From: Syntrophaceae bacterium
Lineage (GTDB): Bacteria; Desulfobacterota; Syntrophia; Syntrophales; Smithellaceae
Length of the DNA stretch: 59,938 nucleotides
Direction: 5' to 3'
Assembly: GCA_003139775.1 (NCBI GenBank)
Contig: PLGI01000116.1
Coordinates: 1 to 59,938, forward strand
A model generated the notes under the pieces. It was not told the origin of the DNA. It saw only the letters and a list, made by a program, of their open reading frames with translations, and ran no database searches. How positions within the stretch are numbered: position 1 is the stretch's first letter; every line of letters starts with the position of its first letter. Positions 2,653-50,482 of this stretch are shown in pieces. The position numbers were made by a program, and so were the translations under genes.

Positions 2653-3912
2653 TTATAACTCCAACGGAGACGCAATTCTGCCTAATACAGCAGAAGCCGC
2701 TGCTACAGCAGGGCTGGCCAGATAGACTTCACTTTTGGGATGGCCCATGCGGCCGACAAAGTTACGGTTCGTTGTAGAGACAGCTCTTTCTCCTTCCGCC
2801 AGAATTCCCATGTGCCCGCCTAAACAGGCACCGCAGGAAGGCGGGCTGATTATGGCGTCGGCGTTCATGAAAATCTCAATCAATCCTTCCTTCAATGCTT
2901 GCTTGTAAATCGCCGGAGTTGCCGGAACAACAATCAACCTTACATGGGACGCGGCTTTACGTTTTTTCAGAATCTGTGCGGCAATTCTCAAATCTTCAAT
3001 CCGGCCGTTGGTACAGGAGCCGATGAGCGACTGGTCGATTTTTACCTTGCCTGCTTTGCTTATTGGTTTGACATTGGAAGGCAAATGAGGGAACGCCACC
3101 TGCGGCTCAATATCGCCGGCGTTGATTTCGATAATGTCGGAATAGACGGCATCGGCATCGGAGGTATAAAATTTATAATCGCGCTTCGCTCTTTTTTTGA
3201 CGTATTCTCTGGTAATCGCATCAGGAGCGAAAATGCCGTTTTTTGCGCCGGCTTCAATGGCCATGTTGGCCATGGAGAGTCTGTCGGCCATCGGCAATTT
3301 GCCGATTGTTTCTCCGGTAAATTCCATCGCCTTATATAGAGCTCCGTCAACACCAATGCGGCCTATGATATGCAAAATTAAATCCTTGCCGGAAACCCAT
3401 TTTTGCAGTTTGCCGTAAACAACGAATTTGATCGATTGCGGCACTTTGAACCAGAGCTCTCCGGTGAGCATGACGGCGGCAAGATCCGTGCTGCCCACGC
3501 CGGTGGCAAATGCGCCCAGTGCACCGTAAGTGCAGGTATGGCTGTCCGCGCCAATGACTAAATCTCCGGGCAGAACAATGCCCTGTTCCGGCAATAAAGC
3601 GTGCTCAATGCCCACTTGTCCGCCTTCGTAAAAATGAGTTACTTTCTGTTTCAGCGCAAATTCGCGCACAGCCTTGCATTGCTGGGCGGAATTAATATCT
3701 TTATTCGGCGTGAAATGGTCCAGAACTAAAGCAACTTTGTTTTTGTCAAAAACTTTTTTCCCGCCCGCCTTTTGGAATTCATTAATCGCTATAGGCGCGG
3801 TGACATCGTTGCCCAAAGCGATATCCACTCTGGCGTTGATCAACTGACCGGCAGAGATTTTTTTCAGGGCGGTGTGTGCCATTAAAATTTTTTCCGTAAT
3901 AGTGTTGCCCAC
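2653..3912 (-). CDS. leuC: 3-isopropylmalate dehydratase large subunit
   Basis: Aconitase-family motifs ([21 protein letters not shown]). I shortened the 445-aa track ORF to the GTG at 3912 ([13 protein letters not shown]...), which has AAGGAG 7 nt upstream (complement of 3920-3925). This gives about 419 aa. Confidence 0.9.
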
Positions 3913-47019: not shown

Positions 47020-47844
47020 ATGGAAAGCGCGATAGCAAAAGCAATTCAACTCAAATACCAGCCGGTGGCTCTGCTCTGGTCTAATGAAAAGCCGCAAGGC
47101 GCAATGCAGTTTCAGGAAGGCAAATGGGGCTGTGTCATGTGGCTTGCCGCCCATGCCGCGAAAGGAAAAACGGCTGTCGCCGATATAAAAACATTCGGCT
47201 GTTTCGGCGGAGGAGTCGGCCTGGGTTTCGGCAATCAATATAAAAATTTCCCCGGCGGTGAAGAAGGCTTTTGCAATTTTCTTTCCGATGGAAACGCAAA
47301 CAGGAAAGACGGGGAGGAACTGGCCGAAAAAATAAAGCCGTTTATGCGCGCTGAAGCTTACGATAATTTCCTGCATGGTGAACGCTACGTTAAATCTCCC
47401 GCTCTCGTTAAAAAATTTGTTGAAAACCTTCCGCTGACAGAAATTCCGAAACAGTATGTTGTTTTTCAGCCATTGGATACCATTGATACAAAGAAGGAAA
47501 AACCTCAGACGATTATTTTCTTTGTTAATCCCGATCAGCTTTCCGCATTAGTCGTTCTGGCAAACTTCGGACGCGAGGATAATGAGAATGTGATTATTCC
47601 TTATGCCGCCGGGTGCCAGACCATAGGCATTTATCCGTACCTGGAGGCTAAGTCAGCCAAGCCGCGTGCCGTTGTGGGCCTGACCGATCTTTCCGCGCGC
47701 GTCTATATCCGCAAACAATTAGGCGATAATCATCTTATGACTTTTTCTGCGCCATTTGCTTTTTTTGAAGAGATGGAGCAAAATGTTCCCGGCTCTTTTT
47801 TGGAGCGACATACCTGGGAGAGCCTGCTTTCTGAAAAAAGTTAG
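47020..47844 (+). CDS. DUF169-family protein (hypothetical)
   Basis: 274 aa. The overall pattern (PVALLWS...GCVMW...FGCFGGGVGLGFG...IIFFVNPDQLSALVVLANF...AGCQTIG) resembles DUF169/COG2043 proteins. Confidence 0.5.
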   Translation: MESAIAKAIQLKYQPVALLWSNEKPQGAMQFQEGKWGCVMWLAAHAAKGKTAVADIKTFGCFGGGVGLGFGNQYKNFPGGEEGFCNFLSDGNANRKDGEELAEKIKPFMRAEAYDNFLHGERYVKSPALVKKFVENLPLTEIPKQYVVFQPLDTIDTKKEKPQTIIFFVNPDQLSALVVLANFGREDNENVIIPYAAGCQTIGIYPYLEAKSAKPRAVVGLTDLSARVYIRKQLGDNHLMTFSAPFAFFEEMEQNVPGSFLERHTWESLLSEKS

Positions 47845-47847
47845 TTT

Positions 47848-48135
47848 TTTGTCATTGCGATGATCAGCCAAAAGCGGAGAAGAAGCAATCCCATAACTAG
47901 ACGGATGCCACTTTGAACGAATGCGAGAAGTCTTAAGACAGTTGAAGGAAGTGTCGTTGCCCAAAAATCCTTTTCGCTGCCGGAAAGCGTTTTGGATAAA
48001 TCTAAGGCTTGCTTCAGGCGATTACAAAACTCGCCTTCGGCTCAATCAGTTGTAATCGCTGATCTTACGCTTCGCCAAGATTTATTAGCCAATACGCTTT
48101 CAATGGCCGTTCAAATAGATATTTTTTGGGCAACA
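47848..48135. repeat. Hairpin-rich repeat/MITE-like segment
   Basis: It begins with gtcattgcga...gaagcaatc. A 12-bp inverted repeat, gttgcccaaaaa (47956-47967) / tttttgggcaac (48123-48134), encloses a 10-bp stem gcgattacaa (48018-48027) / ttgtaatcgc (48050-48059). Confidence 0.6.
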
Positions 48136-48243
48136 GGTCAACTGCGATTTTATATTTTACAAAAAATATTGTGTGTTATATAGAATAAGAAAAAGTGAAG
48201 TTCATATATTAATTGTTAGCATTAAAATATTGGAAAGTGTTGC

Positions 48244-48894
48244 ATGAAGGAATATATTAAAAAATTGGGGGAAAAATCTTCTTCTGAAATACTTAAGATA
48301 GTGCATTTTCATGCATTAACAGCGTATACATATTATTTTACAGAAAAAAAGGTCACTTCTGGAGAAAAACTTACACTTATACTTGCCGATCCAAGATTTA
48401 ATAAAGAAACTATTTCAGGTACAGAACTTCTCCCTAGGTTAAGAGATTACAATAAAACTTATTTAATAGATTTATCATTCCTTCATTGCGTTTCAATATT
48501 TGAATGGTATTTATTTGATTTATTAGAGGCATTGCTAAAGTTAAGGCCAGAACACATTGGCAGTAAGAAGCAATTAGAGTTAAGTATAGTTTTTGACTCA
48601 GCAGATAAATCTGAAATCATTGAAAAAATAATTGACGCTGAGTTAAACAAACTAAAATATCAAAATGTCATTGAATGGATGGTCTATCTAAATAAAATAG
48701 TAAAAATTAAATATCCATCAGATAGTGACATTAAAAAATTGGCAGAAATAAAAGCCAGCAGAGATATAATAGTGCACAATAATTATATAGTGAATGATGT
48801 ATACTTAAGGAAATCGGGGAAATGTGCTAGGTTTAAGCTTGGAGGAAAGCTAAATGTAAATGAAAAGGAGTATTTTAATCTTGTTTGGGGTTAA
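48244..48894 (+). CDS. HEPN-like (RxxxxH) hypothetical protein, possibly 3'-truncated
   Basis: 216 aa, all-helical-looking and very AT-rich. It has an Rx4H motif in ...KLAEIKASRDIIVHNNYIVND about 40 aa from the C-terminus, as in HEPN RNase-type domains. It is flanked by repeat patches, and no partner gene was seen. Confidence 0.5.
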   Translation: MKEYIKKLGEKSSSEILKIVHFHALTAYTYYFTEKKVTSGEKLTLILADPRFNKETISGTELLPRLRDYNKTYLIDLSFLHCVSIFEWYLFDLLEALLKLRPEHIGSKKQLELSIVFDSADKSEIIEKIIDAELNKLKYQNVIEWMVYLNKIVKIKYPSDSDIKKLAEIKASRDIIVHNNYIVNDVYLRKSGKCARFKLGGKLNVNEKEYFNLVWG

Positions 48895-48896
48895 TT

Positions 48897-48916
48897 CCCC
48901 GTAGCTTGCTGCGGGG
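48897..48916. repeat. Palindromic repeat unit ccccgtagc-tt-gctgcgggg
   Basis: Same unit as accccgcagcttgctgcg (38171-38188) and accccacagcttgctg (57974-57989). It starts 2 nt after the HEPN-like ORF stop. Confidence 0.8.
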
Positions 48917-49195
48917 TAGTTCATTGATTGTGCGGCATTTATAAAGAATATCATAGAAAATATTAGCATAAAAGTAGTTAGCAATTTCAACTTTATAATC
49001 TAACGATGCAATCTACAGGACGCTCATTCCTCGCGCCGGTGGTCTTTACGTTAGCCCAAATCTATAATCATCAAATTATCAAATAAACATAGTATCCATA
49101 AACCACTTTATAAATTCATTGCCTGTCTGAAAAAGGTGTGCTAGTTTACGACACATTCAAGAGGAATAATCTGTATTTAAATAACCGATAAATAA

Positions 49196-50482
49196 ATGAA
49201 TAAATTAAATCCTTCCGCATATCTTGATAGTTTGAATGTTGATACGATGCGTTTTGGGCTTACGGCAATTACTGATCTGTTGTCGCGGCTGGGAAATCCG
49301 CAAAATTCATATAAAATAATATTGATTGCCGGTACCAATGGCAAAGGATCAACTGCGGCGATGACCTCTTCGATCTTGTGCAGCGCCGGTTATAAGGTTG
49401 GTCTATACACCTCCCCGCATTTGGTTGATGTCCGGGAAAGGATTGTCATCAACGGGAAGAAAATATCCCTGAAGGAATTTAACCGGACTATTGCGTATGT
49501 GAAAGATAAAAAGGAACAACTGGTGACTTATTTTGAATTTTTAACCGCTGTGGCCTATGTATATTTTCAACGCCAGAAAGTAGATATTGCTGTGCTGGAG
49601 GTCGGTTTAGGCGGCAGGCTTGATGCAACAAATGTTTGTAAGCCGATGGTTTCGATAATCACCAATATTGCTTTCGACCATATCGATTATCTAGGCAATA
49701 CTCTGGATTCAATTGCCCGCGAAAAGGCAGGAATCATCAAGCAAAAAGGCGTCTGTATTACAGCGGCAAAACAAAAAAAAGTTTTGGAAGTGTTAAAAAA
49801 TGTATGCCTGCGCCGCCGCGCGAAACTTTATTGCCTGAATAGCGATATAAAGATCAAAAAGCAAAAGGATGGTTTTTTAAACTATCAAGGCTTGTATCGT
49901 AATCTGAAAAATTTAAAGATTCCTCTGCAAGGCGATCATCAGTTATCCAATGCCGCTCTGGCTTTGGCGGCAATCGAACTTTGCACAAAGAAGGGTTTTA
50001 ATATTGCTGATACAGCGATTTATGCGGGACTCAAAAATACACATTGGGAAGCCAGACTGGAAGTTTTGCAAAATCAGCCTCTTTTTCTTCTCGATGGAGC
50101 TCATAATCCCGCGGGCATCAGCGTTTTATGCCGGTCTTTAAAAAAAGATTTTTCTTATCGCCGTTTAATTCTTATCTTTGGAGCTCTTGCTGATAAGGAC
50201 TATAGTCAAATGTTACAAAAAATAGTTCCTCTCGCCTCAATAATAATATTAACACAACTAAAAACCAAGCGGGCTGTGCCGGTGAACGATATTATGGAAA
50301 CAGTGAAAAAAATGGGCTATCCGGCAATTGTCACTGAAAATGTAAAGCAAGCAATTGAGCGGGCACAGGCCTTAGCAAAAAAGCAGGACTTGATCTGTGC
50401 CACCGGTTCTTTTTATCTTGCCGGTGAAGTAAAACAGGCATTTCCTAAACTTGTCTTATGTGATAATACAAAATCACAATAA
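49196..50482 (+). CDS. folC: Bifunctional folylpolyglutamate synthase/dihydrofolate synthase
   Basis: 428 aa, Mur-ligase-type, with AGTNGKGST, YTSPHL and GLGGRLDATN. Confidence 0.9.
   Translation: MNKLNPSAYLDSLNVDTMRFGLTAITDLLSRLGNPQNSYKIILIAGTNGKGSTAAMTSSILCSAGYKVGLYTSPHLVDVRERIVINGKKISLKEFNRTIAYVKDKKEQLVTYFEFLTAVAYVYFQRQKVDIAVLEVGLGGRLDATNVCKPMVSIITNIAFDHIDYLGNTLDSIAREKAGIIKQKGVCITAAKQKKVLEVLKNVCLRRRAKLYCLNSDIKIKKQKDGFLNYQGLYRNLKNLKIPLQGDHQLSNAALALAAIELCTKKGFNIADTAIYAGLKNTHWEARLEVLQNQPLFLLDGAHNPAGISVLCRSLKKDFSYRRLILIFGALADKDYSQMLQKIVPLASIIILTQLKTKRAVPVNDIMETVKKMGYPAIVTENVKQAIERAQALAKKQDLICATGSFYLAGEVKQAFPKLVLCDNTKSQ

Follow-up and report, generated by a model that had tools for sequence, protein, structure and literature searches.

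Relationship to described HEPN systems

Many toxin-antitoxin, abortive-infection (Abi) and CRISPR-accessory systems use HEPN ribonucleases (RNases) as their effectors. Here we describe an HEPN-like gene from a Syntrophaceae bacterium of the Smithellaceae (assembly GCA_003139775.1; 3.42 Mb in 206 contigs, 43.2% GC), which lies on contig PLGI01000116.1, positions 1 to 59,938 of which are referred to below as the window. No hydrazine synthase was found, and on that ground an anammox planctomycete was rejected as the source. The original prediction, made from the letters of this DNA, had pointed to a 216-residue open reading frame (ORF) with an HEPN-like arginine-histidine motif, and the ORF is present, together with its translation, at 48244-48894 on the forward strand (29% GC). 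The gene is interrupted, and this ORF is not the whole of it. We consider it likely that this gene, which belongs to an unannotated family within the HEPN superfamily, entered the genome by horizontal transfer and was inactivated only recently.

Among recognised families, RiboL-PSP-HEPN (PF18735) of the AbiD/AbiF-related clade comes closest, PF18735 having been described as distantly related to AbiD/AbiF. Its proteins share with the window protein a similar size, a mainly helical layout, a profile match in register and the local motif, which reads RNRLVHNN or RHKIVH in PF18735 proteins and RDIIVHNN in the window protein. However, among 104 aligned members of the present family 102 fail the PF18735 model, as does the window protein, and the family has a long N-terminal helix, a beta-hairpin tip, the signature ExKA[ST]RD...HN...N..Y and a different partner. 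RiboL-PSP-HEPN domains have been reported in fusions with L-PSP and in ParB operons (PMC3710099), neither of which is seen in the present family.

The HEPN-minimal nucleotidyltransferase (MNT) systems, such as HepT-MntA, resemble the present module in that a predicted HEPN RNase and a small upstream gene form a compact operon scattered across genomes. They differ from it in the partner, which is here an acidic protein of about 80 residues with neither a nucleotidyltransferase signature nor a Pfam match, and in the HEPN protein, which is here about 100 residues longer than HepT and matches the HepT fold only at noise level; a minimal nucleotidyltransferase gene is absent from the window. The solo HEPN Abi proteins (AbiD/AbiF, AbiU2, AbiJ and ApeA-type) have a parallel in some family members, the window copy and the closest homologue (locus L005) among them, which occur without a partner in regions that are variable or mobile. 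Unlike the Abi proteins, the family matches none of the PADLOC Abi or HEPN defence models, apart from one member that matches the HEPN part of the CARF_HEPN model (E = 3.8e-4), and most of its members have a partner.

A large unannotated family with HEPN characters

A word-indexed search with the window protein returned five relatives, the best of which (P0003) shares 77% amino acid identity, and an exhaustive search extended the family to 1162 representatives with E<=1e-3, of which 202 reach E<=1e-10; most have a length of 230-245 residues. The ratio of nonsynonymous to synonymous substitution rates (dN/dS) between the window gene and its closest homologue is 0.19 over 212 codons and thus the gene has evolved as a protein-coding gene. 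The window protein matches no hidden Markov model (HMM) of Pfam, NCBIfam or PADLOC and gives only noise against PHROGs and the PDB sequences. A search with the family profile returned solely 'hypothetical protein' entries, none of them with a precomputed Pfam domain, and distant plasmid-borne members are likewise hypothetical in RefSeq. A fold search of BFVD found two uncharacterised proteins from metagenomic phage contigs, A0A8S5NVI2 (E = 2.4e-7) and A0A8S5LJP3 (E = 1.6e-2), both with a probability of 1.00, and no homologue was detected by tblastn in the sequenced phage genomes of INPHARED.

In the alignment of 104 members, R173 is invariant and H178, after a spacer of four residues, is present in 103; homologues therefore keep the R...H pair, the absence of which from them had been offered beforehand as a ground for giving up the HEPN assignment. 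Residue 174 is polar in all 104 (D in 91, N in 13), and further conserved positions are E168 (102), an acidic residue at 87 (103; E in 97, D in 6) and K or R at 170 (99), the family signature being ExKA[ST]R[DN]xxxHN. Intact members (about 230-245 residues) consist of a long hairpin of helix-1 and helix-2, an insert, a helix-3 that ends in the motif and a final helix-4, and they are near neutral, with a median isoelectric point (pI) of 6.1. In the window protein the motif is ASRDIIVHNN and, as was originally proposed, it follows long predicted helices.

Four criteria for HEPN domains have been set out (PMC3710099), among them the location of the motif at the end of helix-3, an N, D or H after the arginine and a conserved acidic residue in helix-2, and the family shows all four. 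A Pfam scan of the 104 members gave four weak matches to three HEPN families (RiboL-PSP, Cthe_2314 and MAE_28990); two members match the PF18735 model (best E = 1.3e-4), and the window protein stays below its gathering threshold and yields nothing against it even at E<=10. For a comparison between profiles, 23 proteins above the PF18735 cut-off were taken from genomes of the same phylum. Using hhalign, the family alignment could be matched to these proteins with a P of 2.3e-5, a probability of 75.8% and a score of 39.9 over 131 columns, in a register that places RDxxVHN on RNxIAH and the FE of helix-2 on the conserved E. The controls stayed far lower, at 8.8 +/- 1.5 for column-shuffled alignments (maximum 12.3, n = 98) and at 13.0 for the alignment in reverse. 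With an HMM built from the 23 PF18735 proteins, about 20 of the 104 aligned sequences were matched at E<0.005.

The AlphaFold (AF2) model computed on a deep alignment (pLDDT 96.2, pTM 0.90) is mainly helical with one short beta-hairpin. It comprises a helix at residues 2-38, the beta-hairpin tip, a helix at 59-100, three short helices at 113-153 and a helix at 160-178 that ends at H178 of the R...H motif, after which come a short helix and a final helix from about residue 208. E87 lies within the helix at 59-100, in a context that is not Ex3[KR]. A shallower model (pLDDT 77) gave no significant Foldseek match, MNT-HEPN toxin chains appearing only in the noise, and the long helical hairpin draws matches to coiled-coil proteins and prefoldins. 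The HEPN-like character claimed for the protein is thus supported by sequence profiles, motif and secondary structure and lacks a fold match to a solved HEPN structure; of the checks proposed for it, the profile comparison gave a match in register and the structure prediction led to no significant HEPN match in Foldseek. Judged from its sequences, the family appears to be a new one within the HEPN superfamily, related to RiboL-PSP-HEPN and not a member of it. From the analogy to HEPN domains that have been characterised, its intact members would be RNases that need no metal and probably work as dimers, the R/H active site being composite.

The same genome encodes two other proteins with HEPN-like motifs. 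One (C124:139-1341, locus L008) is a distant paralogue of 400 residues, which carries the same HEPN-like domain (NRHLIVH) at its N-terminus and is extended at its C-terminus by a part that weakly matches a winged helix-turn-helix. This paralogue type of 400-450 residues occurs in 3 of 35 congeners and in one genome of another genus of the family Smithellaceae, and similar proteins of 410-466 residues are found in a few congeners and metagenomes, one of them labelled 'predicted RNA-binding protein' by JGI. The other (C160:7065-7460, locus L036) is a protein of 257 residues with an RHRIVH motif that is barely at the PF18735 cut-off of 28.4 bits (27.3 bits alone, 28.7 with neighbouring stretches).

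A conserved small protein is encoded upstream in relatives

Neighbourhoods were compared by clustering the neighbouring ORFs of 27 named genome loci, almost all from Planctomycetota metagenome-assembled genomes, and of metagenomic loci. The sole recurrent neighbour is a protein of about 80 residues, encoded on the same strand directly upstream of the HEPN-like gene. It is present in 28 of 33 assessable loci, mostly of Planctomycetota (five of the 28 were recovered by an HMM of the partner), and two more loci are cut at a contig end. Where the start of the ORF is clear the gap between the two genes is -4 to +21 nucleotides (nt), and in a few loci the partner is further away or the ORF call is over-long. 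The partner is acidic (median pI 4.5), with the consensus MxDxxTxxPLxVSTDGxAGPYIxVPxxQLxxVxxLLDxxxxxYWVDxxAISxDGxPEVxVINLGxxxDxxxVQxxLD, and since no relative of it was found in Pfam, PADLOC or the PDB sequences, it is not an MNT. Two Isosphaeraceae loci carry a tandem duplication of the partner gene upstream of the HEPN-like gene (L055:535-915 and 969-1211; L063:2920-3240 and 3256-3498).

No partner gene had been seen in the window, and that holds for the whole genome, the six-frame translation of which gave a best E of 4.9; the partner is also absent from the contig of the closest homologue, from the Aliivibrio and Hymenobacter loci and from other solo loci. The proposal that the window gene might be a solo effector of an undescribed kind is not supported: its relatives are mostly two-gene modules.

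Around the Planctomycetota loci, the 118 neighbouring genes other than the partner are housekeeping genes, unrelated and different from one genome to the next, and a few other loci adjoin RelE/MqsA, a PIN-like fragment, a restriction-modification system with an integrase and insertion sequence (IS) remnants, or plasmid genes. The family gave no convincing match to the known defence models of PADLOC and shows no enrichment in defence islands. The survey of homologous neighbourhoods that had been suggested thus revealed a conserved upstream partner, at loci that mostly lie outside defence islands. Consistently housekeeping contexts had been named as evidence against a defence role; the contexts in Planctomycetota are of that sort, yet they are different in every genome. 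The relatives behave as a self-contained, scattered two-gene module, which is typical of toxin-antitoxin pairs, unlike a component of a defence island. We infer that the protein of about 80 residues is the neutralising partner in a toxin-antitoxin-like module, in which the HEPN-like protein would be a toxic RNase, and the family is probably toxin-antitoxin-like.

Several observations weigh against our overall reading of the window and its family. The hhalign probability of 76% is near the low end of the values used to define HEPN families, a Foldseek search of the PDB with the high-confidence model returned no significant solved HEPN structure, and the window protein itself fails every curated HMM scanned. 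Most family neighbourhoods are not defence islands, the closest homologue and several others are solo, so that the partner is not obligatory, and the truncated product in the window retains the catalytic motif, which makes residual activity possible.

It is conceivable that the family is not one of HEPN RNases at all and that these helical proteins do something else, for instance in regulation or binding; the R...H pair would then serve a different function, and the small upstream gene would encode a functional partner rather than an antitoxin. The missing fold match, the marginal scores against curated HMMs, the housekeeping neighbours in Planctomycetota and the median pI of 6.1, as against the basic pI often seen in toxins, would all suit such a protein. 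We regard it as rather unlikely, as the match between the profiles lines up the catalytic columns and scores far higher than its controls, the R, the polar residue, the H and the acidic residue of helix-2 are nearly invariant and positioned as in HEPN domains, and the neighbours, which differ in every genome, form no conserved housekeeping operon.

The window gene is interrupted by a miniature repeat

The coding sequence in the window is split into the following parts.

48244-48879, forward strand: codons 1-212, which form the 5' part of the HEPN-like gene (ORF, translation, identity to L005, dN/dS and motif)
48880-48925, forward strand: insertion of 46 nt, a short form of a 94-nt repeat family (clean gap against the uninterrupted homologue, other genomic copies and fold)
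48926-49003, forward strand: orphaned 3' end of the gene, 25 codons DCAAFIKNIIENISIKVVSNFNFII and the original stop, comprising most of helix-4 (translation, alignment to L005 and P0003)

In the 5' part, the helix-2 residue E87 is encoded at 48502-48504, and the R-x4-H motif spans 48760-48777, with the R173 codon at 48760-48762 and the H178 codon at 48775-48777. A DNA alignment with the contig of the closest homologue leaves a clean gap of 46 nt opposite 48880-48925. The insert, CTTGTTTGGGGTTAATTCCCCGTAGCTTGCTGCGGGGTAGTTCATT, with a boundary ambiguous by one T, follows TTTTAAT in codons 211-212, at a point where the uninterrupted homologue reads TATTTTAAT/GAT, and contains a hairpin at 48897-48916. 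The palindromic repeat unit that had been placed beside the gene is therefore this insertion within it. It supplies an in-frame TAA at 48892-48894 and a +1 frame shift, and swaps the last 25 residues of the protein for LVWG-stop.

Downstream of the insert, the orphaned tail DCAAFIKNIIENISIKVVSNFNFII-stop matches the C-terminus of the homologue, DCAAFIKGIIENISDKVVNKYNFAI-stop, with the stop codon in the same place. All relatives (more than 100) reach 20-30 residues past the C-terminus of the window protein, and the segment lost aligns with the last core helix (helix-4) of RiboL-PSP-HEPN proteins. Helix-4 is therefore lost from the window copy, which has probably lost its function. The tail carries no further damage (its dN/dS of 0.40 over 25 codons rests on too few codons to be informative), and this, together with the dN/dS of 0.19 over the rest of the gene, makes the disruption look recent. 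Of the two alternatives in the original prediction, the decaying system is the correct one, as a repeat insertion has truncated the gene and its partner is missing.

That the truncated protein of 216 residues is instead a working solo effector, an Abi-like RNase with no need of helix-4 or a partner, seems quite unlikely to us. Its catalytic motif and helices 1-3 are intact, the gene is preceded by a promoter/leader-like motif and a ribosome-binding site (RBS), solo full-length members occur in other genomes, and the dN/dS of 0.19 also speaks in its favour. That ratio, however, records the history before the insertion, the more than 100 longer relatives all possess the segment that the RiboL-PSP-HEPN alignment identifies as the last core helix, and the new C-terminus, LVWG, comes from repeat DNA.

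The inserted element and its recent activity

The 94-nt element to which the insert belongs has ten near-full-length copies in the genome (for example, C187:16264-16357, C174:12490-12583, C171:6418-6511, C167:25584-25677, C89:20212-20305 and C29:73241-73334), and nine of these show 100% identity. Its short form of 46 nt occurs on contig C95 as well as in the window. There are also relatives that have diverged further, and the hairpin core occurs 31 times in the genome. Of the eight full copies that could be assessed, seven have TTTAAT directly on their 5' side, and the target is not duplicated. Folded as single-stranded DNA, the element forms three hairpins (z = -3.6). Identical copies are confined to this genome, fragments or variants being found in 5 of 35 congeners; near-identical copies essentially limited to one genome of the genus indicate a very recent burst.

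In its behaviour the element resembles IS200/IS605-derived miniature elements (palindrome-associated transposable elements, PATEs) or the repetitive extragenic palindromic (REP) and bacterial interspersed mosaic element (BIME) type, since it inserts 3' of TTTAAT without duplication and has hairpins near its ends. The genome likewise encodes Y1 transposases, with three matches, but none of these Y1 genes is flanked by the ends of the element. The insert in the window is a clean example of the inactivation of a gene by a very recently active 94/46-nt element that targets TTTAAT.

Genomic setting and probable acquisition of the gene

The gene lies in an AT-rich islet, as had been noted: 28-32% GC at 48050-48950 in a composition scan, as against 42-48% in the flanking genes and 43.2% in the genome. 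This atypical composition, and nothing else, favours the idea that the ORF arose by chance in AT-rich sequence that codes for nothing, which is already refuted by the 1162 homologous representatives and by a 77%-identical homologue with a dN/dS of 0.19, and can be dismissed as extremely improbable. The features around the gene are as follows.

47845-49098, no strand: extra DNA of about 1.25 kb between the DUF169 gene and folC (comparison with congeners, composition)
48189-48229, forward strand: promoter/leader-like motif of about 30 nt, GAAAAAGYGAAGTTCRTATATTAATTGTTAG, with the core GAAGTTCATATATTAATTGTT at 48197-48217 (genome repeats, hexamer scan)
49099-49195, forward strand: upstream region of folC, common to congeners and outside the islet (congener comparison)

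In several congeners the DUF169 gene (47020-47844 in the window, from a Pfam match) and folC are only 120-400 bp apart, with a short empty spacer between them, and the region upstream of folC is conserved from about 49100. The DNA at 47845-49098 is therefore extra in the window; its AT-rich portion extends from about 48140 to 49098. No orthologue of the HEPN-like gene is present in any of the 35 other genomes of the genus. DNA homology to the closest homologue (83% nt identity) is restricted to the gene, from -16 nt through the stop codon, and in both places a gene of about 29% GC stands within flanks of higher GC. The gene was most likely acquired horizontally and arrived without its partner in the variable spacer ahead of folC. 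The stretch of about 300 bp before folC, which had been called non-coding, proves to hold the remainder of the insert and the orphaned tail of the gene, followed from about 49100 by the conserved upstream region of folC.

The spacer upstream of folC (47845-49195 in the window; loci L040-L050) is a hotspot of gene gain in the genus. Depending on the species, it contains nothing, a gene of the metallo-beta-lactamase (MBL) fold, a carboxymuconolactone-decarboxylase (CMD)-like gene or a porin gene directly upstream. No Rfam family was found in 47800-49250. At 47956-48134 there is a segment of 179 bp with perfect inverted repeats of 12 nt at its ends (GTTGCCCAAAAA / TTTTTGGGCAAC), which had been taken for an element like a miniature inverted-repeat transposable element (MITE); the genome contains it only once, and the identification is unsupported. 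Upstream of this segment, a piece of 30 nt (47905-47934) is found again in the corresponding spacer of a congener (locus L042).

The promoter/leader-like motif lies 26 nt ahead of the ATG of the HEPN-like gene, which is also preceded by an RBS; promoter-like hexamers near the gene are matches to the consensus only. The core of the motif occurs 17 times in the genome (the window and 16 other sites, including C54:7636, C107, three on C116, and C89:43290), as against about 0 for shuffled patterns, and 14 of the 17 copies precede an ORF of the same strand by 0-73 nt. These ORFs are mostly orphan hypotheticals, one being a DUF2806 protein. The core GAAGTTCGTATATTAATTGTT is often preceded by a box like TGTTATAAT. 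The shared motif of about 30 nt could be a common promoter or leader, or a mobile promoter, and its place ahead of the gene suggests that the latter was once expressed from a promoter/leader typical of the host.

A scenario for the locus and its implications

We hypothesize that the gene arrived alone in the variable spacer upstream of folC, where it sits behind a promoter/leader-like motif typical of the host. The miniature repeat of 46 nt would then have inserted after TTTTAAT in codons 211-212, depriving the product of helix-4 and leaving a probably disabled copy without a partner. We further propose, as a tentative possibility that we would not yet call probable, that the family represents a previously undescribed toxin-antitoxin (or abortive-infection) module, widespread in Planctomycetota and sporadic elsewhere, in which an HEPN RNase of a new family is neutralised by an acidic protein of about 80 residues without recognisable relatives; the window would then hold a toxin that arrived without its antidote and was silenced by a site-specific miniature element, the precise excision of which may be possible.

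The window copy, as a decayed remnant without a partner, is itself of limited interest. The family, on the other hand, has more than 1000 representatives, with a conserved small partner alongside, and yet it is hypothetical in every pipeline checked. Work that defines the pair of HEPN-like protein and partner would bring to light a new HEPN module, along with a candidate for a new type of antitoxin.
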